Assembly (NCBI GenBank): GCA_030265395.1
Contig: JARFYF010000068.1
Coordinates: 6,680,267 to 6,743,392 of the forward strand
Origin: Rhina ancylostomus
Lineage: Eukaryota
Direction: 5' to 3'
DNA length: 63,126 nucleotides
The notes beneath the pieces were generated by a model. The model worked only from the letters and a program-made list of their open reading frames with translations, was not told the origin of the DNA and did no database searches. This document shows, in pieces, positions 5,278 through 47,780 of this stretch. Position numbers and translations under genes: made by a program. Each line of letters begins with the position of its first letter. The first letter of the stretch is position 1.

Positions 5278-5304
5278 CGTTTTGTTTGCGAAGATATCTA
5301 ATTT
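5278..5304 (-). pseudogene. 27-nt micro-exon
   Basis: ctttttaccttttcctcag|xIRYLRKQN|gtaatg, phase 1-1. Confidence 0.6.
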
Positions 5305-6645
5305 CTGAGGAAAAGGTAAAAAGTAACAAAGTACTTTAGAACTTGAAAAGCAAACGTTCTCTCGCTTGTTGTATTATAGTATATATGTAAAACGTATAGT
5401 TTTTAACAAAAAAAAGATTGACGAGGGTGGTTTGAAGTTGAGCTCAAGACTGGAGGTCTGAGTTTGGTCAAATTGGGGTCTTACTGGACGACTGATTGTG
5501 GTCGGTCTGAAAATTCTTCTTAATTGGCTTGCGTGTGTGGAAACCAGCAACAATGGATACGTTTTTGAAAAAAAACACTCCTGGAGGATTGCAGGGGATG
5601 AGGAAGCNNNNNNNNNNNNNNNNNNNNNNNNNNNNNNNNNNNNNNNNNNNNNNNNNNNNNNNNNNNNNNNNNNNNNNNNNNNNNNNNNNNNNNNNNNNNN
5701 NNNNNNNAGTGGACGACTGATTGTGGTCGGTCTGAAAATTCTTTTTAATTGGCTTGTGTATGTGGAAACCAGCAACAATGGATACGTTTTTGAAAAAAAA
5801 CACTCCTGGAGGATTGCAGGGGATGAGGAAGCCTGATTTGCTGAACTCTTCAGAAAGTTAAAAAACTGCAGAAAGCCTGCCCGATTGAAAGCCTTTGTTT
5901 TGTGAATACCTCCCTTTTTCGTTGTAAAATATTATTAGCAGCAGAGATCCCAGGATTCTGATACTCAATTAATGTTATTTAAAATACTTCTTTGCCCAAA
6001 CGATCGGCATATAAATGACATTCATTAAGGGACATCCATTTCTTTAAGGCATGTGTAGCTCTCAGAGTGATTGTATTCTCAGAGTTATGATTCAAACGGT
6101 TCGTAACATTCTTTCTAAAAGCAAAATTGGATACTTAATGACTGCTTTTATAAAGGTCATATAGAATCTGTTCCAAAAACCCCATCTGAGCCATTCAGTC
6201 TCTTTGGCCATCAAGAGATATTTTACAATTTCTCTGTTAAAAGTTGGGGATCTCCATTTGTTTTGCGTTTGCTCTTCATCCACAAAACAACTCCATGAGT
6301 ATAACAAGAACCAATGCAAGCCAAGACGTACAACCATTAGAAAAAGGCTGAACGTCCTTATCTACATTCAATTTATCGACGATCAGTTTCGCCACTTGAA
6401 GCATCTCCCGAAGATGTGATTACGTATGTCTTTCTAGATAGCTGTTAATTTTCCCCTCCACCTACCCCATGTAAATATTTTCGTGGCATTATATGAGCAA
6501 CAGCATGTTTTTCTTCCTGGCCATATTCTTTCATCCAATGTGCACCACTCAAAAACAATGAATATTCCTTTGATAGATTGAAGTTTCTGGGGTAGTGTGA
6601 AAAGTTTGACAGAAAACTTGCACTAATTTATAATCTGTCGCTTAC

Positions 6646-6820
6646 AAAGAAGTCCTGATCCATTCCAAGGAATTGGAAATGTGGGACATTTCCAGGGATA
6701 TGAAGGGAGCTTGTGATTCGTTAATATTCGCTTTGCATTTTGTCCAAAGTAAATTAAATGTCATCCAGCCGTCCACAATTAACAATCTCTTACCTTCGTC
6801 CTTTAGTCGTAGAAGCGCCT
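6646..6820 (-). pseudogene. Exon beginning with a KD-x unit; an internal donor allows a 27-nt version (6794-6820)
   Basis: cattttctcacag|ALLRLKDE(G|gtaaga)KRLLIVDGWMTFNLLWTKCKANINESQAPFISLEMSHISNSLEWIRTS|gtaagc. Confidence 0.55.
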
Positions 6821-7576
6821 CTGTGAGAAAATGGATAAACCTGAGCAGATTATAAGAATACACAACCTTGCCATTCGATGTGGCTGTTTCAATAGGCAAA
6901 AAAAAATAGCGAAATTATGGATAGGAATAAAGTAATTAATTTCATTAAAGAAAATTGTGTAGTTCTCCAGGAAGGATAAATGTAGAATNNNNNNNNNNNN
7001 GATGAAATAAAGGGGTCGTACGTGCAGAGATGCAGAACACATCAAAAATACTATTCAAAACTTGAATACTGTGCATTGGATTTAGCGGGAGCAGAGGAAC
7101 ACAACTAAAACACTGAAGCTTCATGTTTATTATGTAAATGAATATGTTTTTTATGGAAATTGAAAATAATGGAATGGCAAAGATTTAAGAGTGGCGACTA
7201 AATAAATTGATTGTAGTTACTGGTATGAATGACACCGAATTCCTCTAACCCACTGTCATAAATGACACAAACATCATTGAATGTCTCTAACTTTCAATAA
7301 TAAGAAAGTATTTCAAACTTTTCAAAACATAGGCAACAAATTAAACACGTTAAAATCAAATATAATTTAAAATACGGAAATAAAAGCAGTATATACCGAG
7401 TGCTTCAAATTACTGCATCAGGTATACCAATGATTCAAAACTAAAAACAATTGACCAAAATATACTGCTGTACCTCCCAGACACGTTGCTTCTGCGCTTG
7501 GTCTAATGTGGTTCGATTTGTTAAATTTTAGGGGTGAGTCCGGGTTCTAGGTATAAAAATAACCTTTGACCATTAC

Positions 7577-7752
7577 CATAACTTGATTCCCATGAAATAA
7601 TTTGGATACAAAACTCTTTTGGCAAAGTAAACTAGCATATGAGTGAATTCGTATCAATGAACCCAAGGGGAAGTTGGAAGAAGGAAAGTGAAAAGAAAAG
7701 AACAATAAGTTGTCCTGCCGAGGTTGTGGATACGGCTTGAAGTACATAAACA
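7577..7752 (-). pseudogene. Exon (open)
   Basis: ctcctctgtgctcag|FMYFKPYPQPRQDNLLFFSF...LFHGNQVM|gtaatg. Confidence 0.45.
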
Positions 7753-8280
7753 CTGAGCACAGAGGAGAGGAGTTTCCACGAGTGCTCTGTTTGCTTGCCC
7801 TTTTAAAAAAATTACTGCATTGTTGCATTCCTTTAAAAAAGCATTAAAGTTTCGCCTTCAGCTAGACTCCAAACGCATTCCATTGCTCAAGCCATTTCTG
7901 CGAGTCAGTCCATTCATTAATTCTGTATCTGCACTTTGAAAAACCGAAGTACTGGACTTACTTCAGTCTATTGACTCGTAACTGCACCCAGGGCACTTCC
8001 CTTCGGGCGGGAGATACTTCGCATATAAATATTCAGATTACGGTCGCCAAGGTTGGCATATCAAGCGTGTATCCGTGAATTTAAACTGGTCGACAACTTT
8101 CATTATTAATGCATTTTTGTTTCTTTGTCATTATTTCACTTAATGTTTTGATTAGATTTAGTTTGATTCACTTTTAATTGGTTTAAAGGTATAGATTATT
8201 AAAGTATAACTATTTGCTGTTGTCCTGCGAAGTTCTTGTATCTCCGGTAACTTCCGAGTAGTTAATGCTGGGGAACTTAC

Positions 8281-8334
8281 CCGAGAAACTGTCTCTAAAT
8301 ATCATCATATCATTTAGAGATGTTTGAAAAGACT
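8281..8334 (-). pseudogene. 54-nt exon (phase 1-1, open)
   Basis: SFQTSLNDMMIFRDSFS|gtaagt. Confidence 0.5.
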
Positions 8335-9201
8335 CTTTAAATAACAAATTAGCAAAAGTCTTTGAGGGCAATTCCAGTCTGCCTCACTTTTCTCTGCCTG
8401 AGTCCTTTATGCTGCTTCACGCAACAGTCCCATCAGCGAATCCCTGTGGATTTTAACAGTCCCGCAGATGCAAAATATTTGCGCCGTACTAGCACAGGAG
8501 AATATGTCCAAAAAGGTTCGGACCTTTGTTGAACGAATTGGAATGACAGTAAAGCATTTTTTCAAATAATTGGCAAAACGTTATGGAAATATATCACAAA
8601 ATATGGACAGAAAGCTCACGCACGTTAAAAAGAAGGGGTAACATACTCTTCACACCTTGAGTTTAAAGAGTTATTTTTGCAGTGACAACGTGGCGTGGGT
8701 CTGCTAGTAGGTCTTGAGATGAACTAATATATGTTAATATAACTCTCCACTATTTTCACCTTTCAAAAATGGAAACAGTAATTCTCGCTAAGTCTAATAT
8801 GACGCATGTTGTTTGCTGAGGTTCGCAGCATGAGCAATGGCGAATTTGAAGTGTCGACAACGAGAAGTCACGTGATGTATATGATCGTCGGGTCAACATT
8901 TTCCTCAACATATCTTTTAAGAATTAAATGGTTTTGGTTCCCTTCACAGCCGTCTACCCCCACCTCACCCAAATAATTGATAAACATATCTTACCGACAT
9001 CTTTGCGAATTATTTCTATTTGTTCTATTTCTAAAATCAAAAATATCGCAATGGTTAAAATGACACCTCCCATGGCAATTTATACGTGAGATGATTGAAC
9101 TAAGACTGAGGCAATTCATTGCGTGGAAAGTAGACTGCTACTTTCTGGGTACTTTGCGTGTATTGGCAGGTAGTTGGGAGGAATACTTCACATGTGTTAC
9201 T

Positions 9202-9267
9202 GTCTAGGGGTATGATTCTCGCTTCGGGTGCGAGAGGTCCTGGGTTCAAATCCCGAACGAGCCCCCA
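9202..9267 (+). tRNA. tRNA-Pro(CGG) retrocopy, 5'-truncated, with encoded CCA; not a functional gene
   Basis: GTCTAGGGGTATGATTCTCGCTTCGGGTGCGAGAGGTCCTGGGTTCAAATCCCGAACGAGCCCCCA matches vertebrate tRNA-Pro from about position 10 with 2 substitutions. The 5' acceptor strand is absent. Confidence 0.9.
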
Positions 9268-9270
9268 ATT

Positions 9271-9347
9271 TGTTACGAACCAGCAACAACAGAAACACAC
9301 TGAGACATGTATAAGTGTTAAAAACTACTTTATTAATAACTACTTAT
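9271..9347 (-). mobile_element. 3' end of an LTR (same family as 12310-12984), running into a gap
   Basis: Near reverse complement of 12908-12984. Ends GTAACA and is followed on the minus strand by AAT and a tRNA-Pro PBS. Confidence 0.8.
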
Positions 9348-9951: not shown

Positions 9952-10173
9952 CTGTTCTAGTTTCACGCAGCTTTGCCTCTGTGATGAAAACATAAGCAAA
10001 TGCAATTAGTATTTCCCCGAACTTGGCATGGCTAAAATAATCGCTTGTAGCTTCCTCATAAGCAAAATCGTTCGGAATTTTGTCGAAAACTATATAATAC
10101 GGAAGAAATCTTTCAAACAATATCTGCGAGAATGCTTTGTTTGTGCCTTTTTTGCTGATATTCACTTTAACCA
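9952..10173 (-). pseudogene. 222-nt exon (phase 1-1, open)
   Basis: aattcgcag|VKVNISKKGTNKAFSQILFERFLPYYIVFDKIPNDF...EAKLRETRT|gtttgt, within ORF 9905-10174. Confidence 0.6.
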
Positions 10174-11095: not shown

Positions 11096-11113
11096 CGTCG
11101 TCCTTCAAGTGAT
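11096..11113 (-). pseudogene. 18-nt micro-exon (KD-x family)
   Basis: aattatag|xHLKDD|gtaagc. Confidence 0.5.
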
Positions 11114-11270: not shown

Positions 11271-11285
11271 CTGACTCTTTATCAA
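11271..11285 (-). pseudogene. 15-nt micro-exon
   Basis: ctttcctcctgtttgcag|TTGATAAAGAGTCAG|gtacac. Confidence 0.5.
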
Positions 11286-11894
11286 CTGCAAACAGGAGGA
11301 AAGCGGGTAAAGAATTATTAAACGAAAGTAACTGTGCACTGAGTTATTTCAAGGGAGCTACTCATAACGGAACGTACATGTAAATGGAAAAGAATCATGT
11401 GGTTTCCCCAAGTATGAAGTATTCTGTTCAGTGGAATTGAATGTAAAACGAACAAATCGTGTGTGCTGGTTTACTATTTTCACCAACATCCGATGCTAAA
11501 TATTAATTATAAGCGCATGAGGATATCAACTGAAGTTTACAAACGAAGTTCTTCGTATAAGCAAAATAGAAAGCCGAAATAAAACGAGCATAATTGTCTT
11601 TGAGTTGACATTTTATTTTGAAAGGTTCATTTGAGTGTGTTTATACTCACTTTGTTCCTTCAAACGTCTGTTGAGATCATCAACTTCTGTAGCATCAAAA
11701 ATATTACGTATTCTGTCAGTTACATAGAAATCAACCCAAAACTTCAATCATATTGTTTTATTCCTTCCCTTTTGGAACATTCCAGCATCAGAGATCACAA
11801 TTGCAATTATATTCCACACGAAATCTTTCGTTTCATGTTCATCGATTCAACTAAACAATGGAAAACAAATACAACTTCTGGAATCTGAAACCCC

Positions 11895-12404: not shown

Positions 12405-12984
12405 TGTGTGTGTGTGTGTGTGNNNNNNNNNNNNNNNNNNNNNNNNNNNNNNNNNNNNNNNNNNNNNNNNNNNNNNNNNNNNNNNNNNNNNNNNNNNNNN
12501 NNNNNNNNNNNNNNNNNNNNNNAAAGCAGTGGAGTTCAGATTGTTGTTGACCTGTAGAAAGAAACAAGTATTTGTGTGGACGGCCACGATTCGAGTGCCT
12601 TTCCTGGAGATGCAGATGCGGTGGAGTAGTCGCTGCTGAGGAGACACTAAGATGTCGTCTGGGTTCCAAAGTGGAACATTTTGATTTCGTAATTACTCTA
12701 TTTTCTCTCTACGTTTTGTTTTCAGTCAACAGTTGTTGTTGAAGAAGCCCTTGCTCACGTTTCACGTTACGGCTTGCTGAACTGAACTTTGAAAACTATT
12801 CCTGGACTAGGAGTTTGGAAGTTTGCCACACACACACACACTACGAGTTTAGTTTTAGGGGCTAATGTTTAAGATCTAACAGTTTTACTTTTATTTTTCT
12901 TATTATCATAAGTCGTTATTAATAAAATAGTTTTAAACACTGATACATGACTCAGTATGTTTCTTTTGTTGCTTGTTCGTAACA
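12310..12984 (+). mobile_element. Probable solo LTR (Gypsy- or ERV-like) with an internal (GT)n and a gap
   Basis: Starts gGTTAC, ends GTAACA, has AATAAA near the end, and has a second copy next to a PBS at 9271. No convincing target-site duplication. Confidence 0.65.
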
Positions 12985-14234
12985 ATTCGATCAAAATAAA
13001 GTGGTCAGCTAAGTTCATATGTCAGAATATACTGATACAAAATTTAAAATGATACTTCACTTTTGTGTTGCACTTTGGACTGTGACTTCAATTTTTTTCA
13101 CAACTTGCAGACTATTTATAATGTTTTGTTTCTCTGAAGAATTCTTAAGGGGTAATGTTAATAAAATATAATTCCCAGGGAAGAGTTTATGTCATAAGCC
13201 GGAAACTGATTCGTAATTTAGTGGAGGTAACTGAATCAGTTATCTAATTTCTCCAGAAACGGAGAATTACATTGGATATTATTGCCACCAGAATAATAGA
13301 AAATGTGGTGTACAAAATAAAACTGATAAAATGAACAAAAAATAAATAGGCCAAGCAACATCCACATGGATAGAAAAAGAGTCAATGGCTCACGTCGACG
13401 ACATTTCATTACAACAGGATAAAACTGAAATTGGATATGATTTATGTTACAAATAAAAGGTAGAGTGGAAGAAAATAACTAATGTTTGTGATAAGGTGGA
13501 AGCGAAGAGAAACTGAGTGACAAAACTATTAGTGATGCTCGGTAAGCGGATCGTGAAGGCTTTTTTAAAGCAATTGATCTAACTAGAGGAGAGCTAAGCA
13601 CATGACAGGATGTTAGAACAGAGAACAGAGTGAAAACGTGTGGAACCGTGAGATTATTAAGAATGTATTTTTTGAGAATCTGACAGGAAAGAGAATACTG
13701 GAAATACTTAATATATTAAGTACAGAGTGGTTCTGTAGAGGTAGTCCCTTCATCAGATATGCCCAGTTCCGCAAGAAAGTCAAAGGCTGATCATCTAAAA
13801 TTGTTCAATTCATTTGTTCAGTCCTATGAGTTGTTACACGCCTATTCATTGGAAGATTTTTCCTTCGACTTTCCACCGGTCTTCATTGAAACAGTGTAAG
13901 AAGCCGAATACAAGTATGGAATAGAGAATTTACAAGTAATTTGCAACGGAATGACTTTGTTGAAGGAAAGAGAAAACAATCCTTCAAACGTTGCTTAAAC
14001 AACCCTTTCTGATCCCATCCAATTCGCTCTCTGCAGAGAGCTCAGCCTCGTCCTTATTCATCCCCGTCAGAATGAACTGCACGCCCAATGTGATATTGAG
14101 TTCCTTTCCCGTTACGCCTTTGAGCCAGGTTTATTGACGGAGAATCCTCACAGAAAGCTTTGATTCGTTTCTCCTGGCTTCCGACTTGTCTATCTACGTG
14201 GAATTCTACCACCTTCTAATAGGAAGCTCTGCTC

Positions 14235-15605: not shown

Positions 15606-18109
15606 CTACAATCACGGATAAAAGTAATTGGTAATTGATGATTCTTTTTACTGCTCCCGTGGCAGAAAATAATATGTACTTGTGTTTAATTCTGCATTGC
15701 GTTGATGGAATCAAATTTTCGTTTGAACTTTGGAAGTTAGGTACTGTGTCTCCTGATGCGTGTAGAGAATCAATGATTCATGTTTACTCTGCTTCCCCAA
15801 CTGAATAATAGTGCTGTCATCGACCGTTGTTATCTATTCATCTCCTTGAAAATCTGCCTTGATTCACTGTCCACAACCTCTCCATATCAATAAATGTCTG
15901 GGTTGCTCGAAAAATGGAAACTGGACCCTGTTCGTTCTGTCAAATCTGCTAAGTAATCATACACCTTTGAAACATGCCTGATCTTCAATATTCACTACCT
16001 GTCAGAATGTATGCAAATAACTGACAATAATCGTTCAGAAAGATACTTTCTGAGACAGGAGCTGTTCTGACACGGGAGTTAGCAACGATGAGGCTGTCTC
16101 ATTACACTGGAGAATTATAGTCCCGAATTCTATCTTAGAGGATTAAAGGAAAGGATTTGGAAGATAAGCCATCCTGGAAAAATGTTGTTTTCAATTGTTT
16201 TAACAGGAACCAAAATTGCAGTTTACATTAAAAGATGCAAATTGGTAAATTACCAAGTTCTTTTCTGCGTAGATTGTTCTCTGAAAAATAAACATTTTAA
16301 TATAATAACTTACAGCAATGTTTCCAAAAACATTTGGATACATTCATCCTTGCTTTTCTATTCCCGACTAATTCCATTACTTTATTAATGAAGCAGGGAA
16401 TGAAAAGTGGGATGAATGCAAAATGGACCACGGATTCCTATTCCCTGCTGCCATCGAGTATCAGTGCAAACTGTGACTGGAGATATTATTTGTTGGTTGA
16501 TCTTATCAGATGAGTTGATCATACCACATACTCTGAAACACTTTGTAGAACTGATAGCGTTCGTTTGAGTATATGTGCAGATATTTTATTGACTCAAAAG
16601 TTCATTCAACTGTTTTAATGTCTTTATTGAATATTGGGATTCGTTTTCTAAATGTGAAATTTTTAATACGCAATGACTCATTGATATATTGAGGATCATT
16701 TTGGTTTCTATATGTCCACCGAATACCCAGCCGTATTTTTCCCTGGCTCTATGTAGAATAACTGTCGAATACCGACCTCTCCCGCGGAAGTTTTAAAGAA
16801 AAACATGTTCCCAAACTAGTCGATTAAAACTGTAGTTAACTGAAACGGATAGACGGTTTTCTGCATTAAAATGTGGCTACATAACTGTGTTCACCGTAAA
16901 TTCAAAGAACTGCCAGCTGAGATAGGATAAAGGAAAAATAATTCCCCGCCATCCCCACCGAGTAGTATTTTATCCAATTGAACCTGTTTCTGCTAAGTAT
17001 TGTTGCTGGTTTCTTTACTTCGAGCTTTAAGCATTTCCAGATACATTTTCTCACCAGAATCTTGCAAGTTTGCCTNNNNNNNNNNNNNNNNNNNNNNNNN
17101 NNNNNNNNNNNNNNNNNNNNNNNNNNNNNNNNNNNNNNNNNNNNNNNNNNNNNNNNNNNNNNNNNNNNNNNNNNNTGCCTTCAATGTATCTATTTCTGAA
17201 AAATAAAAAAATAAAAAAACAACGCATAAATCACTTATGTTCAGTTCACGTACAAATTAACAGAATATTCCGCTTTCCTGACATAAATCGCGATGACCTG
17301 ACGATTTTTTTTACATCGTCTTTCTTTATGAACCCAAGTAAAAAAAACGAATAAATAAAACGTGGTGATCCGTTTCAACTGGTCTGTTATGTTGAACAGA
17401 AAACAAAAAAGTTTAGGGCAGTTCTCCTTGATACGTGACTTTGGAACTGATTTCCGAACCTCTCCGCCTCTTAAACTCGCTTCTTTGTACTGTTCCCTGA
17501 AACTATTTCCACTTCTTCACGAGTATGTCCACTGATATTCTTTTAACATATTAGGATACGGCTTGAAAAATATTGTTTTTTAAATGTGCTCATGGAAGTC
17601 TTTATAAGTTTGTCCATGGACCGCGTCCTGCTGACTGTGCCTGCTGGTTCGGAACAATTAAACCAGCTATCCCAACGGAAATGTTCTTAACTTACACAGA
17701 CCTGTGTTAAGTGCAGTTTGCATGAGTGACAGACAACGGAGAAACTAATTCTCTGTTCCAATGGTGGACTGGACGTCGCATGCAAAGACATACGCCGGTC
17801 TTGATGGTATTTCCCAAACTTACAATGGGTATGTTGTCTATCTGATCATATGCAGCTCAGAGCTGCGTATGATATTTTTCAAACATTTTTTTCCTGGAGA
17901 TTTAAGTAAAGAAAAGGTAACTTAAGTCCTACACATTTTACTCCTGTGGTTGTTGTTTTCGGTTATTTCATATCTTAACGTGGGTTAATTATTCTCAACA
18001 TTTAAAAGTGTATATTTAATTATCTGAATCAATTAATATTTTAAAGTATGTGGCTGCTTAAACCTACTATTAATTATACCAGATTTAAATGAAGTGAAAT
18101 CTCAATTAC

Positions 18110-19279: not shown

Positions 19280-19306
19280 CTTTATCTTTTAGAAGAAGTT
19301 GCCTCA
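19280..19306 (-). pseudogene. 27-nt micro-exon (KD-x family)
   Basis: tttttctcctaacag|xRQLLLKDK|gtaaac. Similar to 47754-47780. Confidence 0.65.
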
Positions 19307-20729: not shown

Positions 20730-22805
20730 CTGTGAGAACAACAAGTGAAAGCGAAGAAAGCGGTCAGAGTGCCGAGGTCTAAAGGATGAGGACGGACCAG
20801 GAACTTCAGTATGTTAACCGAATATAACCAGAGACCTAAATAAGGATACTTTCATTGCTAAATTGGGAAACTAAAAGTATAAAAAATGTAGAAATGGGGA
20901 ATAATTTTCAACGGTGCCGGTTCACTTGGGAACTAAAACCAAAGCTGATTTACCAGCAGTTTAATGTAAATGTGACTAAAGGGGAGGGGTTCAATTTCAG
21001 CAGCAAGAAGAGCGCGATCAGAAAACTAATTCTGAAGGTACAGAGAACAAATGTTGCAGTACCAGGACAGTTAGCTTGCTTTCAAATGACGTGCCCTGAT
21101 AAACACTTTTTCTTAAAAAGCAATATGAGCATGGAAAGCAACAAGCCTTTTTCCTTTCTATTTTAGTAACAAGCTCTTCTGCGAGGTCTTTACATTATAC
21201 CACCCGCCACTTCTATGTCGTCAGGCTTGACTATTGGCAGGATTTTACAACTACAATTTGAGAAATATATTTGCAGCAGTACGAGGAAAATTCAAGATTA
21301 AATTTGAAATAGATTAAATACCATGCAAATTAAGTTACACTATGATATGACGTCCGTAATGTTATTGTTCGCGCTTTTGATAAATTACTGACGTCGTATC
21401 ATGGTGAACTATTTGTTATTGCTATCATAGATAACTTCACTATATTTTTGATTGCTTACTGGTATCTTGAAGAAGGATTTTGAATTCTGTATAATATAAT
21501 CATAAAGGAATCATATGTATAAATCTGTATTGGCAGTTGGTTGTGCACGTTGTGCACTATGCTGGCAGCCTTGAATTTGAGCAACACATGTTCTCACTGA
21601 CATTCGCGCGCACGCACACGCACACGCACACACAATTTAGCAGTAAACAATTTAGCAGTACGATCAGTGCCTTATCGTACATTATTGTCGTTCTCATATT
21701 GAAACATTAATAGTCAGGCATTAAAATAATTTTACGTATGAGCTCTTATCATTAAATATATGAATCAGTTCAAAGAAATGCAATTCCAGCTCCAATAATT
21801 GTTATGCCCATTGTGCTGGTCCTCCTCGCCGTCAGCACTGCAATTCAAGAAATAATAAACCGTGTCATTAATTGACACTCTGTGCTGAACTCCAGTTTCG
21901 CTAAGCTACTCAAATGTAGTTTGCAATAACTTTTAACCATCATATTGACAAATAAAACCTATATTTGCATTGAAGTTAAGACGACTTGTCGATATATCTC
22001 GAAGTCTTTAGCACAGGAATGGGACAAAATATGGCTGCATTAGCTGACGCAGATGCTCTTAAAACTCATCAGTACTTAGAAAGAATCGTTTCATGAAGAA
22101 CGTATGCATTTGCTGCTGGTGTCGAGGATCTTGTCAAGAATGCCTCCCTAAAAATTGCAGTTCTGTTCATGTTATTAGCGAATAGTTTAGCAATCTGATG
22201 GAAATAGAAAACGGTGTATTCAGGGATCTGAAACAATAACCCTTAAAATAAGATAGAGTGCCGATTTTACAGTCCGAGGTGTTACCACATTGAATGTGAT
22301 AGTGAAAACAATGAAACGCAAAGTTTTCATTTTCACACAGTTTCGTAAATAAGGAAATTATCCCTCAGCCTTTTTCGGTGGCAGCCTGACACAGTCGTAG
22401 TTATGAAATCTCAATATTCATTCAGATCTTTTCATGATGACCCATCAACCCGACATAAACATAAGTGTAGTAACTACAGTAGTATTCAGTCAAGAGAGCT
22501 GAACATGACTTTCTGAAAATTGACGATGGCACCAACATACCATTGTGGGCAAAGTGAATCAAAGACAATTAAGTATTCTCTGGGCTTTCTCAGTTGCTAA
22601 ATCATTCGACCTTATTTTAAAAAGAGTGCGTGGTCTGCAATGGATTAAAAATTACTCTTCCATCACGAACAAAGGATGTATAATCTTCCCTCATGAACTA
22701 TATAATGATTAAGTAACAAAATAGATTTGACACTTATAGTCCAATTGCCGCAATCCTTTGTGAAACAATTCTCTCATCCACATCTCCCATTCGCTTGATC
22801 GTTAC

Positions 22806-26279: not shown

Positions 26280-26975
26280 CTAGAAGTTCGTGAACAAATT
26301 AAAACAAATTCTGTCATGGTAAGGGATCCAATTCCTTCGCAACTGCTGGCTCAAAACCACGAAACTCCATGATGAAAAACAAATTTAGGAAATGATCCTC
26401 ACAAAGATTTCACGATGTCGGAAGGTGAATCTCTATAACCTTTTTCGGTGGACAGTGAATGCCAAGGGCACTCATTCCTCTGCATGAATGAAAGCGATGT
26501 ATTTCTGTTCTTTTTGTTCATAAATTTATAACGCAATAATAATGGTATAAAACATAATAGAATATACCTTTATAGTTTTGGAACAGTTTATCTATTAGAA
26601 AGCAAGGAATGCTATTAAAATTCGGCAAATATCATATGTGTAAAAATGACAGTTTCGGAACAGTTATAACAGTCGAAATTTTAGAACTTCCTGGTGTTTT
26701 AAAGGCATGTTTTTCCTGGAATTTCGTGTGACATAGTCAAAAATGATCTTATTCCGATAATTTAGGTGCTCCCTATTTCTAAGGCTTCCGGTTTCCTTCG
26801 GAGGTTCTGTGCTCAAATGAATAGCTGAAAATAACCCATTTTATTCTCCCATAGCAGAAATGCCTACAATAAAATCTGATGCCTATTGCCGTCGGGAATA
26901 TTGTACGGGGGACTTGGTCTATTGTTCGTTTCAGTCTGCACTGAACACTTCCATTATTAACACGTCTGTTATCAC

Positions 26976-30614: not shown

Positions 30615-30642
30615 CTCTGTTATTATCACCCAATTTTTTTCT
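30615..30642 (-). pseudogene. 28-nt micro-exon (27 nt plus one A in a homopolymer)
   Basis: ttttattttccacaacag|...KKLGDNNR|gtagga. Confidence 0.5.
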
Positions 30643-32613
30643 CTGTTGTGGAAAATAAAAGTAAGTTTGAAGTATATTGTAACTTAGTTGTTCTGGTGTT
30701 TCAATAGTAATTGATAAGGGATTTGATTTACCCTTTCCATGGGAAGAGGTTTGAATTTATTTTTTGAAATTAAACTTGCAGGTGCAAATTGGCAGCTATA
30801 GAGCATAATATCATTGCGTTTTGTGATATTCACAACCCATACTTTTTGCAGTCAAGGCAAAACATCTCAAAAATACTCAACCATACAGAGCTAGCTTGTG
30901 TGCGCACGGACTCACATACAAACACACATACACACATATGCCCACGTTCACACTAACACACATACACAAAAGCAAATACACAATCAACCATGTAAGCATT
31001 TGTACATACGCGCACACGTGTGTACATGCGTACGAGTGTGCATGTGTGTGTGATTCCAAACAGTTCCCTCTCCAGCTTCGACTTGATGAAGACGATATAT
31101 GCCGGGAAATGCAGAAGACAAGCAAAACATTCATATAAAAATAGACAGATAAACTATAGATGTCACTAACTGTGAAGAAAATGAGCGATAATGAAGACTA
31201 GGCACTTAAATATGTTATGAGATTAATGGGTAAAGAATGCTTTTGAGGACAGAATTCTGATACTCTATTAGGTATCAAAATCACATCCACAGCACAGTGG
31301 AAACTATGATGAAAACAAAACATGGAACCAAGATATTGACTACTTTTTGAATGCTCATGCTATGTGGCTTTTCTGCATTTTTGATGGAGAGAAAATAATC
31401 GAACGTCCGAAAATATGAGTTTGTTGCGACCATACAGGAATCAAAACTCTACGTGTCATAACTATTTTAAAGGAAATCATAACTTTGTATTTCCAGTGGA
31501 TAACATATATGGTCAGTCGGCAATAGCAAATGACCACAATTATAATTCATACAATGAGCGGCTGATTGGGTCCGGGGGGGGGGTGGGGTTGGTAATAGTT
31601 CCGCAGAGACAAACCAATAAAACCAGAATAAAATATACTAAGTATGAATCTTCACGTAACTGTAGCTTGCTTAAAGGATACAGGGAGAGGTATTCTGTAC
31701 ATCATTAAAATGCACCTATGAGGAGAACAGACTATTTCTTTTCAGCTCAATCTGACTGTCAAACTATGGTAACGAACGTGATCGGATATGTAGAAACTGA
31801 AGTTGTTGATAACTACTTCATTTTACTTAATACAAAGGCATACCATGCTTCAACCTAAGGGTAGTACTGATCTGGATGTGATTATAATCTCTGAACGGGA
31901 TTGGGCAAGTTAATAGATCAAGATTTTAAATTTTAGATTTCACCCATTCGGTAGTTTCCAAGAAGTTTGTAATGGTGTGGAGGAAAGGCACATACACATG
32001 TTAAAATTTTTATACATTAACTTACAGGCAAATTCATATTCCAGAACTTAATGCTCCTAAAGATCTTCAGTTCAACGAAAGCACCTACTTTTTCATCTTC
32101 AACATATCGTCTGGATATGAAGTAATCACATGTTTATTAAAAGGAAATAAGAATCGCTGATTAGCGAAAACACCTGCGTTTTTCAGACTATCTCTCAGTT
32201 TTTCGATTTCTGAAAAAGACAGAAAATTATTTAATTCGATTTATCAGCTAACGTTCTGTAATGTCACTATTTATGAACAGAAAATTAAATACAAATAATT
32301 CATTGTTCATGACATTTTGAAATTGACGATACCTTCAGTATGATAATCAATAATGAATTAGCTTGCCTTAAAATATTGTGCATTTCATCACTAAATACCT
32401 CACAAAAGTAATTATGTATTATTTTCAATTTTCTCTTCTTCTAAATATACTCAATGTTCTCTGTTTTTATAAATTTTGAACGGTAACTAAAAGCAATATT
32501 TGAATTATGCATCAGATTAGAGTTTGGTCTTCCTGTGTTTAATATTATCAAATAAAATGAGAAACAATACTTTCTACAAGGAGAGGGCTTTTCAGGGTAT
32601 TGGTTGCGAGTAC

Positions 32614-32643
32614 CTCTGTCTTTATCTCTGAGTTCATCTTCAA
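32614..32643 (-). pseudogene. 30-nt micro-exon (KD-x family)
   Basis: tatttcattacag|xEDELRDKDR|gtactc. Visibly similar at the DNA level to 38673-38699. Confidence 0.6.
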
Positions 32644-35937: not shown

Positions 35938-36517
35938 TGTCACAATGTTGATCCGGAGCAAACTCACAGAGAACCCAAATGCGGCACACCAATACAAGAC
36001 TGGTGTCAGGATACTTCCTCAGGACAAACGCAGGCAGTATCTGGAAGGAATCTTGCCTCGGAGATCAGAAGACGAATCCCAACACGAACTGGATCTTCGC
36101 AAAGGAATAGAGAACACAGGACTGCTCTAGAGTAAATCTACTCTAAGCAANNNNNNNNNNNNNNNNNNNNNNNNNNNNNNNNNNNNNNNNNNNNNNNNNN
36201 NNNNNNNNNNNNNNNNNNNNNNNNNNNNNNNNNNNNNNNNNNNNNNNNNNATTAAAAAGAAAGCAGTCAAACTTTGACAGAACATCTGAGAAGTCAGTGA
36301 TGACTTGCAGGAAATTAGAAGGTTAATCTCGCGGAGTTATGATTGAACAGCGGGTCCGATAGACAAAATTGTGGTTTAAATGCAGACGGATGGGCAGCCG
36401 CAGTGAATAATAACTGAGAGCGGTGAAAATGGGACGCAATGTCAGGTGAAGTTACTACCCTGGACGGCAACTGTGAACTGTGTGAACTGACGCGTGAAAG
36501 GAATGTGAACCATGACG
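35938..36517. mobile_element. Possible solo LTR
   Basis: Begins TGTCAC, ends about CATGAC, is more GC-rich than its flanks and contains a gap. Confidence 0.35.
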
Positions 36518-37541: not shown

Positions 37542-37660
37542 CTTTACTTCCTTGGATGAATAGGAAAAGTGCAAATTGCTTATTACTCGTGTTAAGTAAT
37601 ATAGCTGCGTTATTGCTAATCCACCCGCGTATTTCACCCTGTCGTTAGCTCTTTCTATTT
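37542..37660 (-). pseudogene. Beta-region exon (open)
   Basis: tttttgtctctctattacag|IERANDRVKYAGGLAITQLYYLTRVISNLHFSYSSKEVK|gttatc. Confidence 0.55.
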
Positions 37661-38672: not shown

Positions 38673-38699
38673 CTCGGTCTTTCTCTCTCGCTTCGTCTT
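38673..38699 (-). pseudogene. 27-nt micro-exon (KD-x family)
   Basis: ttttatgtcacaacag|xDEAREKDR|gtaatt. Confidence 0.65.
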
Positions 38700-40494
38700 C
38701 TGTTGTGACATAAAATAGAAATTGCATTATGATTTGTGGATTGGATTTCGTTTACTAGGTAGGAAAATATTAACTGGATTAACTGGTGAATGTGGTTTTA
38801 TAACAGGAAAAAGTAATATTTAGGATGTTGATACTTGCAGAAATATATAAAGGTTTCANNNNNNNNNNNNNNNNNNNNNNNNNNNNNNNNNNNNNNNNNN
38901 NNNNNNNNNNNNNNNNNNNNNNNNNNNNNNNNNNNNNNNNNNNNNNNNNNNNNNNNNNACAAAGAACATTGAACAGTAACAAAGAACAAACTGCTCTGGG
39001 TGAAACTGCGAAGGCTGTCAATTTAGTTTATATACGAGACGTCAAAAAAGATGGCAGGGAAGAGATTACGAAATTAATGCGCCAAAAATAAAACAAAAGA
39101 AAGAGTTGTTTATGTTTTTCAACTCTGTTCCTCGCAGCTGCAGGAGTCTGTTGCAAGCCATCAGAAATTGTGTTTTCGTCGACTCTATGTAGATGTGTTT
39201 TTTATAATGCTGATGTGCATCCGAAAGCAGTTGATCAGAGAATAAAGTTCCATGTTGGAAGCTGTTGGGAATCCACTAAGGGGGATCTACAGAATCAGGC
39301 GAATTACAAATAAATCGAATGGTTCAACGTACATATGTAGTAAGAATAATAATGAGGTGAAAAGAAACGACGTGTTAAATGCATAAAACAATCGACATCA
39401 GCAAGGATATATTTTAATGCGCCGAATTAATTAAAATATATGTGAATAGTTTTTTTCTAAATAATGCTCAGCTGCCATAGGATACTATTTGTTTATCAAA
39501 GCTCATACGACTTCTCAAGCCTCAGATTTCAGAATGATGCCATTGACCATGGAGGGCCAAAAGGACTACGTACCATTCTTGCATGGAATGTTCGTGCGAG
39601 ATAGTCACGCTGCTATTGCTGAACGTTTGAAACGATACTGAAACAAGGAATTGACGTTGTGCACAGCTTCTCCTGCAGTCTAATTTATGTAACAGTTTTT
39701 GAAAGCTTTGAGCTGCACATGTCTGCTCCCATTTTGAAATAGGTTATTTCATTCCCACGTGTATGTGTGTGTGTAGATTACACAGAGGATTGAAAAGGGA
39801 TATAGAATCGTAGATGGCCGAATCAGTACAGTGCAGAAGAGGATATGAATGGAATGAATAGTTCCATGCGTCACAGCCAGTGTGAATGGAACACATTACT
39901 GAATGGCAAGAAGCATGTACGATGCATCAGAAAAATAATGAGTCAAACATAACGACAAGTAAATCGAAAAACCTGTAAAATTGGGAATAGTGTGAAAATG
40001 AGTAAGTAAAGAGTGCAGGACTATAATGAATCTAGGTTCGTGTGAAGTTGCACAAATATAAGAATTGGCACTAAGTTAACTGAGCAGCTAGTGCAATGTA
40101 TAATACTATTTTAACAGGAAAACTACAAAATTGGTCAGAAACATGATTGTTCATTCCACTGAAATAAATGCAAATTTAATGTCATTTAGTTGTATTAGAA
40201 GTGAGCANNNNNNNNNNTGAGCAAACTACGGTGCTTATTCATAGATGAGGTAGAACTTAATCTGGTCATAGTTGGTATCACCAGGAAGTCTGGTTAAATA
40301 GGAAGTATGTGCGTCTCTATGAACATTGCATGTGTAAAGTTGCTGTGAGGCTTCCATTAAATCCTTACTGGCTCTTTGTAATTCATTTCTCAAATTCTCT
40401 ATTTCTAAAAGTCAGTATAAAATATTGCATCAGTTAAAGACAAAAAGTGACATATGTGAATTTCAAATAAACCACCGTCTCTCTCTCTCCCTCA

Positions 40495-40550: not shown

Positions 40551-42479
40551 AGCACAAATATTTAGTGAATAAATTTCGATCTCAACAAGTTCGAAATTCA
40601 TCAGTGAAGTTGCGTTTTCACTTTTCCACAGAATTGTATCCAGAGACTGACGTACATATCTGGTAATTCAAATAACTATGCCAGGATAAAAACGCTGATT
40701 TTGCTGATGATTTACCTGCATTCTTTTCAATTAAATCTTTCCCAGAAATGTAATATTCCAATGACTTTTCTATCCCTCTGTTTGTATTATATACAAATTA
40801 AAAACTCGATAAAAATAATCTAATGTTATCCTGTCAGAAAATAATTTTGTGATGTAAGCCATATAGACTGCAAATGTAGACGGCAAAGGGTGCCACTTTT
40901 TCTGAGCAAAATGAAGGCATCCCGTCCTGAATTACTCAAAAAGGGTTAATGTTTCTGTTCAGTGTTAGAATCAAATGGAATGTCAAATGTACACGAACAC
41001 TTCTGTAAATAATGCATTAAAATATAAAGCCCTTTGTACTTTCACAAAGATGTGTGTCTGTGTGCGCGCGCGCGCGCTGTAATATAAATATATAAATAAT
41101 GAACAAATGTTTTTCTTCTGCATTCCCACTCAAATAATTAATGATTAATATTTTATAGGCAGCGTTATAATAAAAGAAATCCGCTGACCTTGACAAAAAC
41201 CAGACCAGCATGGGATGTCCTCTTTTATGGGAATATTGCATTTCCTCACGTCAATTGTTATAAAGGATATGTGAACGAGAAGTCTGGTGTCCATTCGCAG
41301 CGTCGTGATCAAGCAAGCTGAGCAGTCAAGCACGTTCAAAATGAGTATTGCTATTTTCAATTAGGTTTTAACCATTTTCCCAAGAAAGAAATAATTTTAT
41401 TACTTATCTGCGAGATTAAGATAGAAACTACGAATTATAACGAAACTTCAGAAAAGAAGAAGTCACAACATTCGGAAAGCATTACCGGCCATTTGATATG
41501 ATCATGCATTCAACCTGCACAACCCTCCAAAGTGGGATGTCCAGAGGATCGACGCCCTCAGCGTGAAGAACTTCCTACGTACGTCAGTTTAATATGCTAA
41601 CCAACCAATCCTGTAACTAATGTCCCCTCGTTCGAGATTCCCCACCAATGGAAGCACCTCTACGTCTATAATTTCACCTCCTCGCCCCCCGAAGATAGGA
41701 TATTTTTCAAAATAATATGTTATTTTTTTTGAGACACAGAGCTGCTTAAGCAGGAATTAAGGCATAATATACCATAAAATCCGCATTTACGTCTCAGTGA
41801 TTGTTTCTGTATATTGTTTTTAAACAGATGGAATAGAATTTCATATAAAACCTCTGACTGTACCAGAGAATGCTGCGACAGTACAGCATGCAGAGGAACA
41901 TGGAATTGGTAACGATTTCACAATCTGAGTTTTTAACTATGGACAGTCAGCAAGTTGCTGGTGGCTTCCTGTGTTATCTTATTGAAATACTACAACTTTA
42001 TCATTTCCATGCGAAATAGTGGCATACATAAAAACTAGTTTTGCAATGAAACAAGTTAAGATTGCAGGTATTGATAAATAATTGTGAATCAATAATTGAA
42101 AGAATAAATAACAATGACAGTTGCATCGATGTTATATGATATTACCTGAGTAGTTTGTTCCTTTGTTTCATTCAAGGAAACAAACAGAGATCAGATGTGA
42201 ATATCACAATCAACATTTCCAACCAACCCAAATATTTTATTCAAATGAAGAGAAACTGGTTCAGGTAAAACAATATGTGAATGGTAATATTGTGGCGCAT
42301 TTAGCAGTTAGAAAGAAAGGTGGTATACAGTAGCGTAACACACAAAAAGCTGCAGTAACTCATCTGGCCAGACAGCATCTATGGAAGGAAATGGACAGCC
42401 GAAATTTTGTGTCGGACCCCTTCATTCAAGGGAGACTATAACGGGATGAGGGAGGAGTTAAAAGTAAGGACAGCAAGGG

Positions 42480-44392
42480 CGGTGAAAACCAACCTTGGAC
42501 AGCTAAGGAAATAAAAGAAGGCATAAATCTAAAACCTCATGCATACAAAGTCACCAAGAGTCGTGGGAAACCGGAAGACGGGAAACTGTAAAAAAAAACA
42601 AAGAACCACTAAGCACACAATAAGGAAATAAAAGATAGATTATGAAAGTCAACTAGAACAACATATAAAAACAGATAGTAAAACTTTCATAATTATATAA
42701 AGCGGAAAAAGGAGGCTAAAGTGAACGGAGGTCCCTTGCATGATGACAAGGGGGAATTAATATTGGGTAATGTGGAAATAGCCGAGGCCTTTAACAGCTA
42801 ATTTCTGTCGTTCTTCACGGAGGAGGATACGTCTAACATGCCAAAGAGTGATGCGATGCGAGGCGAGGACCTCGATACAATCGCTGTTACTAAAGAGGCA
42901 GTGATGAGCACACTAGTGTATCAAAAGTTAGACTGGTCCTGATGGGATGCATAGCAGGGTACTGACGGAAATGGCAGAAGTCATAGTAAAGGCGATTTGG
43001 ATAATTTACCAAAATTCCGTGGACTCTGGGCAAGCCCTGGAGGACTGGAAGACAGTGAATTTCCAGCCACTATTTAAAAAGAGGATGCAGGCAAAAGGCA
43101 GGAAACCATAGGCTAGTTATTTGAATTTCTGTAGTCTGGACAATGATTGACGCTATCATTAAGGAAGAAATAGCAAGGCATCTCGACAGAAGTGTTTCTA
43201 TCAGGCAGACCAGCATGGATTCAGGAAGGGCAGGTCCTGTTTGACAAATTTAGTGGAGTTCCTTGAGGATATAATGATCGTAGTGGACAGAGGGGAACAG
43301 GTGGATGTTGTATACTTAGATTTCCGGAAGATAAGATGCCGTATAAAAGACTTTTTCATAAGATAAGGATACATGGAGTTGTGGTAATATATTAGCCTGG
43401 ATAGTGGATTGTTTAACCAATAGAAGGCAGAGAGTTGGGATAAATAGATGTTTCTCTGGTTGGTAATCAGTGGTGAGCTGGGTGTCGCAGGGGTCGGTGC
43501 TGGGCCCGCAACTGTTTCCGATATACATTAATGATTAGGAAGAGCGAACCGAGTGTAGCATATCTAAATTGTCTGAGGAAACTGAATTGAGTGTAAAAGT
43601 AAATTGTGCAAAGGAAGCAGAAAGTCTGCAGGAAGATATAGATAGGTTAAGTGAGTGGGCGAGGGTCTGGAAGCTGAAGTACATGTTGATAAATGCGAGG
43701 TTATCCACTTTGGAAGGAAAATACAAATTCAGATTATTACTTAAATGGTCAAAGATTGCAGCATGCTGCTCTGCAGAGGGACTTGGCAGTGCTTGTGCAT
43801 GAATCGCTAATAGTTGGTTTCTAGGTGCATGGCTTATCAAGAAGGCAAGTTGAATGTTGGTCTTCATTACAAGAGGGGTTGAATTTAAGAGCAGGGAGAT
43901 TATGCTGGAACTGTACAGGGTACTGGTGAGGCCGCACCTGGATTGCTGTGTGCAATTCTGATCTCCTTACTTGAGTAAAGTTGGAGGCGGTGCAGAGGAG
44001 GTTCACCAGGTTCATTCCGGAGATGAGGGGGTTAGCCTATGAGGACAGATTGAGTCACCTGGGACTATATTCACTGGAATTCAGAAGAATGAGAGGAGAT
44101 CTTATAGAAATATATAACATTATGAAAGGGACAGAGAAGATAATTCAGGAAGGTAGCTTCCACTGGTAACTGAGACTAGAACGAGGGGACATAGCCTCAA
44201 TATTCGGGCGAGCAGATTTAGGATGGAGATAAGGAGGAACTGATTTTCCCACACTGTAGATATTTTTTGCATAGTAGTGGAATCAAAGGTTATGGGGAAA
44301 GGCAGGTGGGTGGAGATGAGATTAGTCTTCATCTTATTGAATGGTGGAGGCTCGACGGCCCAACTCCTGCCCCCTTTTTTATGTTCTTATGT
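42480..44392 (+). mobile_element. 5'-truncated CR1 LINE (ORF2 RT through the 3' tail)
   Basis: QHGFRKGRSCLTNL, QGSVLGPQLF and EAVQRRFTRFIPEMRGLAYEDRL motifs, with a tail ending tatgttcttatg. Confidence 0.95.
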
Positions 44393-44953
44393 GAAAAGGA
44401 CTGATCAGGTTGATTGCCTTTCATTAATGCAACATGAAATGTAATAAAAGATGATGATGATGCAAATCTGAAATTTATAAAAGACATAAATTCTGTAATG
44501 ACCCAGGAGATTAGGCAATATCAGTGGAAAGATAAACAGTTANNNNNNNNNNNNNNNNNNNNNNNNNNNNNNNNNNNNNNNNNNNNNNNNNNNNNNNNNN
44601 NNNNNNNNNNNNNNNNNNNNNNNNNNNNNNNNNNNNNNNNNNGAGATTAGGCACTATCATTGGAAAGATAAACAGTTAACGCTTAAGATCTAATGCCTCT
44701 CCCTGTTCTAATGCTATTGATAAATACATGTCGTTACAAGTTAAGCAAGAAAAAGCAAACAACGAAGGAAATGTTGCTAGATCTGATTGTTGGAAATGAG
44801 GTCGATTAACAGCGTTAACTTTCAATTCAGGAGTACTTAGTAGGTGGTAATCAAGGCGTAATAAAATGTAATATCAGTGTGGGATTATTCGTTTAACGGT
44901 TGGATTCAAGCTGATTCAAGTGGTATCAGATTGATTTCAATAGAAAGGCCTAC

Positions 44954-45290: not shown

Positions 45291-45308
45291 CTGGGTAGGA
45301 TTTGCCTT
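45291..45308 (-). pseudogene. 18-nt micro-exon
   Basis: ttgtttatatttcacag|AAGGCAAATCCTACCCAG|gtaaga. Confidence 0.6.
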
Positions 45309-45529
45309 CTGTGAAATATAAACAATTGAGAAAGAATGAAATGGAGTATAGAATATATTCGACTACATAAAATTAAATCTACATGTTAGCATTTTTCCAT
45401 TGTGATATTGTAAGATAATTCAGGGAGAAGATCAAAATAACGTACCAAAACAATAGACAAAAACGAAAGGCAAAGCTTTAAGACGTATTAAATAGAAACA
45501 GTTCTTTCACGGATATAAACGCCTAAAAC

Positions 45530-45710
45530 AACATGAAAAACACGATGATGATGGAGAAACTCAGCAGACCAGGTCGCATCCGTGGACAAAAGCAGACGGT
45601 CAACGTTTCGGGTCAGGACCCTTCTTCAGGACAACTCCATGATGCTGGAGGAACTCAGCAGCGCTAACACCTAGATTACAGCATCTGGAGTCCTTTGTTT
45701 CTCTGAAAAT
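45530..45710 (-). mobile_element. Penelope-like element terminal fragment(s)
   Basis: gatggagaaactcagcag...caacgtttcgggtcaggacccttcttcagg, followed by a second gatgctggaggaactcagcag. Confidence 0.65.
45599..45632 (-). ncRNA. Minimal type I hammerhead ribozyme motif
   Basis: The minus strand reads GUC CUGAAGA A GGGUC-CU-GACCC GAAAC GUU GAC. This gives the CUGANGA and GAAA core, a closed stem II, stem I GUC/GAC and a palindromic stem III. Confidence 0.6.
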
Positions 45711-46100
45711 AACGTTGGTTTTATCGTGTTTCTCAAAATAAATGCGTATTCTCTCGTTATCAAACAACGACCAACACATCTTTCCAATTTTGTCTTCCAG
45801 GACGCATTGACATATGAATAATAATTTCAGAAGCATTAGTTAATGAGATTTTAGTGGAAATCTTTAAGTTCGAATTTCAGTCCATAACTACAATGCACCA
45901 ATTTAAACAACTACTCAGGCCCTTGCTGACGTGTGCAAATCATACTACCACGTTTCTAAGATTTGAGCAATTTTAGGACATTGGCCTCATTATCAGCATT
46001 ACTGGCAAGGCACCTTTAAAGGACCAACACTTCAATTATAATTGCAATTTTCATGACGTCTCATAGAGGCAACTGCCTCAGCGTTTTGCCTAATACTTAC

Positions 46101-46166
46101 CTTTCAAATGGCACTGGTCGATATCTAAAGCAATTTATCGGACTATAGCTTGCGTAAGGAGTCATC
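46101..46166 (-). pseudogene. 66-nt exon (stops)
   Basis: Donor aag|gtaagt. Reads LLTQAIVR*IALDIDQCHLK. Confidence 0.4.
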
Positions 46167-47109
46167 CTGACACATGCTATACTCGTCCTCCTCCAAAATA
46201 TGCAAGGAGGTATAACAGTACATTTCAGAAAAGTCCACTTTTAGTGCCGTCTTCACAGAAATTGAACCCATCTTTGTCCTCCCGATGGATCCGATAATAT
46301 TTTAGGGATAATAGATGTACAATTCTCAGTTCAATTTTCCCGCACATGGGCGTGTATTTCCTCCATAGTTCCCATGCAGAGGAAAGAAAAAAGACATAAT
46401 TCACCAGAAATTTAGCTTCAAACTTTTAAATGAGTATTCTTAATAATACTCATTATTGTACAGAGTAATATGCAAAGTAATAATGCAGAGTACTCACGAT
46501 ATTTTGAGAATACAAAATTGAATATACTGCTCTAACAACTATCCACAGGGCTGCCCTTGAACACTCTACGCAAAAGATGCATTTCACTGTGTGTTTCGAT
46601 GAACATGTGACGAATAAAGATCTTACCTTAGCTGATCTTATCCACCCATTTCATTTTATGCGTTATTACAGCCAGTATAATGAAGCAAGTAGACTTATTA
46701 ATTCTAACTAAATAAACTAGTTGCCAATAATTCAATGCTCTCGCAATTAATTAATGCACATGAAGTGTATGCAATGGTAACTCTGATGAATGTGAAATAG
46801 ATTTTCAAGGACCATAGACAATGCAATTATAAAAAAGAACACTGCCTGCTATTAGCTGAAATTAAATATACTCTTATTAATTTACATGGCGACTTTATCC
46901 TAAAACATTACTGCATATGCCCTGCATGTTCATCACTACTTCCCCTCAGAAAAATTAGCTGCTTATTAATCTTGTCTTAATACTTGATAGTCAGCCACAA
47001 GAAACAATAGAAAATGCATCAAGAAGGACATAATGTAATCTTTTTTCCGTTGTAATAGATGTGATACTGACGCACAGTTTTAATTCAATAGAATGGATCA
47101 ATGTCTTAC

Positions 47110-47145
47110 CACCATCTGAAACCTTTAACTTCAGGATTTCAATCT
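47110..47145 (-). pseudogene. 36-nt micro-exon
   Basis: ttttttcaacag|xIEILKLKVSDG|gtaaga, phase 1-1. Confidence 0.65.
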
Positions 47146-47753
47146 CTGTTGAAAAAAAATTACACAACGTCAGACCATTCCATTGATATCGCTCAAATAC
47201 GTGCGACGTACACTTTTGAAGGATAAATATTTAAATTCTCAATAAAGGAGTTTTGAGCTTCAACAAAACTCTTTATTGCGTAGGCCATCCGTTATACGCA
47301 CATTTTCCAAGAGCTATTTTCCCCCGTTTAAGATCATGCACTGGAATCAAGCAGAAACTTGAGCAATAGACGTGCGGAAATTAATGTTACTTCTTGGACA
47401 ATCACTTGGTTTCAACGAGCATAAAATTCTAATGCAGTTGTTATGGATCAATCAGCAATGTCACAAAGCACAACAATGTTTTCGTTGCACTGAATACGAT
47501 GATCAAAATAAACTAGAATGCTTTTTCATGCGACACAATACATTTTGGTGAAATTTTATGCGTATTGTAAAACGCATTTTGCTTATCTGATACTGATGTT
47601 GACTAGCTATTTAATCATATAAATCATTTAGTTTCTCATACGGTATTATCTGTTTGCTCTCTATTGGACATTTATTAAAATTCCATATCTTCTGAAATAA
47701 AATGTCGTTAAGAATTTTATGATATTTATTAACAGTTCTTCTGTCCAAATTAC

Positions 47754-47780
47754 CTATATCTTTTGCCAGCATCTGTTTCA
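47754..47780 (-). pseudogene. 27-nt micro-exon (KD-x family)
   Basis: ttttttcattcttacag|xKQMLAKDI|gtaatt. Confidence 0.65.

Follow-up and report, generated by a model that had tools for sequence, protein, structure and literature searches.

A chain of about 27 micro-exons, running from 59590 to 2245 on the minus strand, was found in a 63,126-nucleotide (nt) stretch of the genome of the ray Rhina ancylostomus (contig JARFYF010000068.1, positions 6,680,267 to 6,743,392), referred to below as the window and numbered from its first letter. The chain goes beyond what chance produces and contains two exon families, type A and type B, which alternate along it; one A exon and one B exon together make 63 nt, which is 21 residues or three heptads. 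The micro-exons look real and we think it fairly probable, with considerable reserve, that they encode a portion of a long rod, one that oligomerises, carries a B30.2 binding domain and grew by duplication of the A+B pair, and whose length may be varied by the skipping of such pairs. The window would then lie inside a cartilaginous-fish gene of very large size, in which alternating A and B exons would give three-heptad modules of charged coiled coil and in which short B exons and pairs of 15-nt and 18-nt exons would introduce stutters or hinges. Old duplications of the A+B pair would have lengthened the rod. The gene would belong to, or work like, fish proteins that start with a signal peptide, continue as a very long rod and end in a B30.2 (PRY-SPRY) domain at the C-terminus; the rod would form oligomers, and the number of its modules would determine how far away the binding domain is held.

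A chain of micro-exons in two alternating families

A preliminary description of this DNA had listed eight symmetric micro-exons of about 27 nt as one family. All eight lie on the minus strand where they had been placed, are preceded by AG and followed by GT, and have G as their last nucleotide; six show the K-D-x ending ascribed to the family, which the remaining two lack, and five are 27 nt long, the others measuring 30, 18 and 28 nt. The unit of 28 nt, 30615-30642, lacks symmetry: the frame is shifted, the peptide KKLGDNNR assigned to it is read in another frame, and on the minus strand the phase-1 frame meets a TGA inside the exon. The splice sites, described as strong throughout, include an acceptor scoring -3.4 (11096-11113) and two sites near 0.5 (the acceptor of 38673 and the donor of 32614); all such scores come from matrices of textbook frequencies, not trained on the species. 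The resemblance of two pairs at the DNA level holds, with 18 of 27 nt shared by 47754 and 19280 and 21 of 27 nt by 38673 and 32614. The eight are not one family, since type A exons are mixed there with a shortened, type-B-like exon (5278) and an 18-nt linker (11096), and the eight 36-nt type B exons were absent from the list.

The plus strand served as background, and the expected excess on the minus strand appeared once splice scores were counted. Without a score filter there are 212 AG-N27-GT units on the minus strand and 178 on the plus strand; at a score of at least 4 these become 10 and 2, and at a score of at least 6, 7 and 0. For units of 12-39 nt scoring at least 6, symmetric units with an open phase 1-1 frame make up 17 of 24 on the minus strand against 2 of 6 on the plus strand, and the same count in 60 block shuffles was 1.7+-1.3 (maximum 5), although overlapping alternatives may be counted twice in these figures. 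The length is a multiple of three in 22 of the 29 minus-strand units scoring at least 5, compared with 3 of 13 on the plus strand (binomial p 3e-6), and the frame of these 22 is open in 19 for phase 1-1, in 12 for 0-0 and in 9 for 2-2.

Wider scans and profile scans added five or six uncertain extras to the chain, and the coding part in the window would consist of symmetric phase 1-1 micro-exons only. Type A exons are 27 nt long (the exceptions being one of 30, two of 24, one of 21 and one of 28 nt), often end in K-D-x and have leucine at position 4 in 9 of 11 cases; the type B exons start with E-I-E-x-L. In the joined module the hydrophobic positions are 4, 11, 14 and 18, and K-D-x-E-I spans the A|B joint. 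DNA identity within a class is 47%, compared with 34-35% in codon-order shuffles (0 of 2000 as high). When each exon was left out of its own profile, six of the eight type B exons outscored all 353 background units and all ten type A exons scored between 5.9 and 18.2. Three 27-nt exons stand in slots where a type B exon is expected; the DNA profile backs this assignment in the case of 49544, gives it weak backing at 5278 and none at 21460. The earlier suggestion that the protein grew by duplication of a multi-exon module is upheld by the two families and their within-class identity, with the correction that the module is 27+36 nt and not the 27-nt exon alone. Introns range from 0.16 to 5 kilobases (kb) or more. 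Self-BLAST and flank alignments in the window found no segmental duplication between modules and no convincing paralogy in the intron flanks; therefore the A+B duplications would be old.

Three type A exons lack an AG at the position that would give 27 nt, and each of the three has an in-frame AG 3-6 nt inside. Furthermore, a profile scan that did not demand an open frame or a GT donor found no stop codon and no lost GT in any family member with a strong score. Both results are as expected under selection for frame. The acceptors in question, at 51476-51478, 40737-40744 and 26592-26596 on the minus strand, have apparently been displaced 3 or 6 nt into the exon; the two type A exons of 24 nt each precede a 27-nt exon, which would give modules of 17 residues.

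Joined in order, a curated set of 27 exons gives a stop-free model of 744 nt and 248 amino acids, 49% charged and with a single proline, whose strongest hydrophobic period is 3.5 residues. Its windowed heptad power is 0.53, against 0.22 when exon order is shuffled (0 of 1000 as high), in a list whose exons were picked partly for their coil-like look. Neither a 9-residue nor a 12-residue exon fits the heptad and the pair does, so that duplication or skipping should act on pairs. The skipping of one such exon would keep the frame and shift the heptad register; the A+B pair is the likelier unit.

The frameshifted exon

The extra base of exon 30615-30642 is backed by sequence reads. Four contig runs (X1 to X4) were compared over 30450-32750, X1 having a share of 0.93 and possibly being the source sample; in X1 one unbroken contig of 2908 bases matches the window across the exon, extra base included, so that this base is present in the reads, and a second allele was not seen. 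In X4, a relative in which 18 differences were counted over 445 bases, there is one base fewer at 30634 and there are two substitutions, which give an open 27-nt exon on the evidence of one contig at depth 3. The neighbouring exons 32174-32209 and 32614-32643 show no differences in X2-X4 where covered, among the differences listed. The broken exon therefore has 3 differences in 28 nt, whereas for its neighbours none is listed over 66 nt (Fisher p 0.024, among the differences listed and with X4 at depth 3). No type B candidate was found by profile scan in the 4-kb intron that follows, where a decayed one could be missed. The outcome of a local register test, with the 28-nt exon included or skipped, varied with the acceptors assumed. 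Most likely, this exon is a relic or a skipped exon of an incomplete module, and we take the frameshift and the shifted acceptors together to reflect a turnover of exons in a gene whose frame is kept by selection.

Alternatively, the same gene could have been disabled recently, in the species or in this individual, the 28-nt exon being constitutive, its frameshift truncating the protein and the shifted acceptors marking early decay. This is the alternative to be taken most seriously, although we consider it unlikely. The lone allele with the extra base in X1 and the open 27-nt form in X4 would both fit it, as would the good splice sites of the exon (4.5/4.6), which tell against our interpretation, and four lesions would correspond to about 2% neutral divergence over some 28 exons by a rough estimate. 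What speaks for exon turnover instead is the distribution of the lesions: every one falls in a type A exon, each of the three acceptor changes has an in-frame rescue, the scan that did not require an intact GT or an open frame met neither a lost GT nor a stop, and the broken exon both lacks a type B partner and holds the differences that its neighbours do not.

Comparison with catfish proteins and chicken BG genes

A protein search was made from natural B30.2 seeds and the best 150 of 6523 representatives were compared with the rod model; the closest local match among these 150 is a catfish protein of 1479 amino acids. Profiles made from the 12-residue type B peptides did not reach an E of 10 in a simulation. 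The B30.2 domain of this protein retrieved 13 long proteins, of which 12 are named, all from catfishes; the members include XP_053086106-119 (Pangasianodon), XP_017313118 (Ictalurus) and KAK3511214 (Hemibagrus), and one catfish isoform is labelled with the zebrafish name si:ch211-14a17.10. They have a hydrophobic N-terminus resembling a signal peptide (judged from hydropathy and by eye), no membrane segment beyond it, a rod that repeats every 21 residues and a terminal B30.2 domain. The module profile of the window ranks the 13 catfish proteins at the top of 135 B30.2 proteins of at least 300 amino acids, with scores of 19.4-24.9 and the next at 15.5, and it matches their 21-residue repeat in the same register. 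Three of the four catfish proteins tested score above a column shuffle that preserves the heptad (2, 4, 8 and 30 of 300 shuffles). The motif E-[IV]-x-Y-[LI]-basic-basic is present in the model and, of all the proteins fetched, in only 10 of the catfish family. One catfish gene has nineteen predicted RefSeq isoforms, with lengths of 983, 1004, 1025, 1046, 1049, 1067 and 1070 amino acids, which differ by 21, 24, 42 or 45 residues, mostly in steps of 21; for the ray gene this gives indirect backing to the earlier suggestion that splicing may vary the length.

The protein at 15.5 is P0107, from the bowfin (Amia calva), which is 632 amino acids long and combines a hydrophobic segment at the N-terminus with a repeated rod and a B30.2 domain. 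The automatic names of the catfish rod and B30.2 proteins, P0197-P0227 (myosin-3, interaptin, EEA1, CCDC18, leucine-rich repeat protein) are misleading and differ between isoforms of one gene.

The ray model and the proteins named like si:ch211-14a17.10 thus share a long charged rod, a 21-residue repeat in the A+B register and the tyrosine motif; they differ in sequons, and the N-terminus and B30.2 domain seen in the fish proteins would lie outside the window here. In the available parts of the sources, si:ch211-14a17.10 is an entry in a zebrafish embryo proteome (PMC9995408), in a gene table of a microglial cluster (PMC9653411) and in a list from Arapaima testis (10.1101/2020.09.29.317222), and the literature found, as far as those parts go, has it in gene lists only.

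A number of observations weigh against the proposal of a rod with a B30.2 domain. The catfish match reaches an adjusted E of only about 0.005 in composition-adjusted BLAST, and no named cartilaginous-fish protein is among the 13 matches of the B30.2 search. The column shuffle is also exceeded by a control, P0189 (6 of 300), and, as B30.2 was the criterion for the comparison set, its controls include no myosin-like rods. There is no colinearity with the catfish rods, module-order shuffles reaching the real score in 14-79 of 200, as would be expected if the repeats expanded separately. The boundaries of the catfish skips seem to be displaced from the B|A joint by about 2 residues, a position that is ambiguous in repeats. 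The model has no N-glycosylation sequons in 252 amino acids, compared with 4-17 in each catfish protein. The continuity of the heptads depends on the curated exon list: exon sets chosen by score alone at a threshold of at least 4 give 8 of 500 under a residue null and 54 of 500 under an order null, and at thresholds of at least 5 and at least 6 the periodicity is not significant, these sets being weaker because missing exons break the heptad register. Pfam gave no convincing match in 88 open reading frames (82 of the 179 on the minus strand of at least 52 amino acids, and 6 on the plus strand), with two weak ones below the cut-off. Finally, the exon chain is a prediction from DNA, and both ends of the gene lie outside the window.

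Some of these points would suit a lineage-specific coiled-coil gene unrelated to B30.2 proteins, whose likeness to the catfish family had arisen by convergence of charged heptads. The lack of colinearity and the weak adjusted BLAST are what convergence predicts, forward-over-reversed scores of this kind are also seen in unrelated coils, and non-B30.2 rods were not among the controls. It is nevertheless improbable, as it would have to account for the same 21-residue unit in the same register and for the shared tyrosine motif.

The nearest known gene design is that of the chicken BG genes. As described in the portions of the reports consulted, their coiled-coil tail comes from 13-36 symmetric split-codon micro-exons per gene, the number being variable; these exons are of 21 nt, with a few of 18 or 24, and the genes show alternative splicing and intron read-through (PMC4046983, PMC5938342). 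In both cases a rod would be made from many symmetric phase 1 micro-exons, here on DNA evidence. A BG gene spends one 21-nt exon on each heptad, whereas the present gene would use two exons (27+36 nt) for three heptads, and BG is a membrane protein with an immunoglobulin V (Ig-V) domain and no B30.2. There are no 21-nt units scoring at least 4 in the window, and the one 21-nt form, at 40716, is weak. The gene is not classed as BG because the 21-nt exons are lacking, though its design works like that of BG; our verdict is that it is a variant of the chicken BG design.

Butyrophilins and TRIM proteins also place a coiled coil before a B30.2 domain, which here is predicted; they have few heptads, and their Ig and transmembrane or RING/B-box parts are not seen in the window (no Ig-V, transmembrane, RING or B-box exon was found among the 88 reading frames scanned). 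The enterophilins of the guinea pig combine a long heptad leucine zipper with B30.2 and are not known to have RING or Ig parts. Triadin, the collagens, the necks of CD23 and CD209 and the gasdermin linkers were set aside on exon size or composition. No description of a 27+36-nt exon module or of such a gene type was found in the literature searched, which did not extend to supplements and most subscription journals.

The exons might instead form the cytoplasmic heptad tail of a butyrophilin- or BG-type membrane protein, whose Ig-V and transmembrane exons would lie upstream of the window. BG tails are themselves built of symmetric split-codon micro-exons (PMC5938342), butyrophilins whose heptads vary in number are present throughout the jawed vertebrates, cartilaginous fishes included (PMC12841164; both sources as far as available), and the model is free of sequons. 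This is very unlikely, given that 27 and 36 nt dominate here in place of 21 (or the few of 18 or 24) and that P0083, a butyrophilin-type model from another ray (Narcine), scores at background (3.8 vs null 4.2). AG...GT units that arose by chance in AT-rich DNA, within introns or between genes, to which the similar unfiltered counts on both strands and some peripheral candidates outside the families might point, are scarcely credible for the core of the chain in view of the bias in strand, length and frame and the family tests.

Other features of the window and significance

Exons and candidates in the window, with the support for each (fractions, background units scoring as high under the family profile)
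Position	Strand	Feature	Evidence
59576..59590	-	15-nt phase 1-1 linker-type micro-exon	acceptor 9.9, donor 4.3, frame open
55585..55602	-	18-nt linker-type micro-exon	acceptor 7.3, donor 7.8
53689..53724	-	type B, 36 nt	1/353; no type A partner found upstream, in an intron holding a 70-N gap
51452..51475	-	type A, 24 nt, AAG acceptor	leave-one-out 18.2; family similarity extends 3 nt further, no AG there
49544..49570	-	short type B, 27 nt	B profile -3.1 vs A profile -19.4
47754..47780	-	type A, 27 nt	0/380
47110..47145	-	type B, 36 nt	0/353
46101-46124, 44059-44073, 43010-43036		uncertain candidates	near 45291..45308; 43010-43036 fits no family (164/380)
45291..45308	-	18-nt Gly/Pro linker exon	splice-site scan
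40716..40736	-	type A, 21 nt, weak AAG acceptor	leave-one-out 9.7; CTG in place of CAG before 27-nt position
40369..40404	-	type B, 36 nt	0/353
38673..38699	-	type A, 27 nt	4/380
37625..37660	-	type B, 36 nt	0/353
32614..32643	-	type A, 30 nt	AG/GT-flanked, family profile
32174..32209	-	type B, 36 nt	splice-site scan, family profile
30615..30642	-	type A, 28 nt, frameshifted, extra base in A run	reads, profile
26568..26591	-	type A, 24 nt	leave-one-out 7.2; TAA in place of TAG before 27-nt position
21460..21486	-	27-nt exon	hydrophobic positions of a short type B; DNA profile nearer type A
19280..19306	-	type A, 27 nt	0/380
17055..17195	-	type B, 36 nt, 100-N gap inside	leave-one-out 14.7; 0/353
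16254..16280	-	type A, 27 nt	0/380
11651..11686	-	type B, 36 nt	3/353
11271..11285	-	15-nt linker exon	acceptor 8.1
11096..11113	-	18-nt linker exon, weak acceptor	AG/GT-flanked
9952..9978	-	type A, 27 nt, GTTTGT donor	profile scan outside training set; 3/380
8995..9030	-	type B, 36 nt	0/353
6794..6820	-	type A, 27 nt	0/380
5278..5304	-	short type B-like, 27 nt	E-I-x-Y-L-basic-basic, common to catfish proteins
2245..2274	-	30-nt exon candidate (36- and 108-nt alternatives)	splice-site scan
1722-1781	-	further uncertain candidate	

At the end of the chain, 2245-2274 and 1722-1748 on the minus strand end alike (T-x-K-E-K and T-E-K, the last 8 nt identical); 1722-1748 has no AG at the expected short position and one 60 nt upstream instead. 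A search for relatives of the 108-nt alternative 2245-2352, read through as 55 residues, gave 37 candidates and none with E of 10 or below, which is weak evidence.

The 100-N gaps at 5485-5832, 44507-44678 and 17055-17195 have flanks that repeat each other by 123, 36 and 5 nt respectively, so that these gaps would be placeholders of negative true size, and the last of them splits an exon. Mutually similar relics of a reverse-transcriptase long interspersed nuclear element (LINE) lie at 57458-58247, 113-595 and 43839-44010, the best named match being a Mobula hypostoma protein at 66% identity, which agrees with DNA of a cartilaginous fish. The stretch at about 9202-9266 on the plus strand we take, from its resemblance, to be a truncated tRNA-Pro-like element; ARAGORN and Rfam gave no matches there or elsewhere in the window. 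It adjoins a 78-nt element with inverted copies at 9270-9347 and 12908-12985. A 71-nt inverted repeat pair (1-71 and 35938-36008, 93% alike) is probably the end of a dispersed element.

A wider proposal, in our opinion decidedly unlikely, is that of a secreted family of rod and B30.2 proteins in cartilaginous and bony fishes, dating from the jawed-vertebrate ancestor. Rod length would be set in each transcript by skipping or including three-heptad exon pairs, and a normally cytosolic immune recognition domain would be held outside the cell at an adjustable distance. Such a family would have been overlooked because micro-exons defeat annotation and because its products are automatically named as myosins or golgins.

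The chain is a clear case of exon structure that matches protein structure, by a design principle already known from the chicken BG genes. It draws attention to a large family of fish genes mislabelled by annotation and, if the link with the catfish proteins is true, the ray gene would gain an expressed, probably secreted teleost counterpart for which there is a zebrafish gene.

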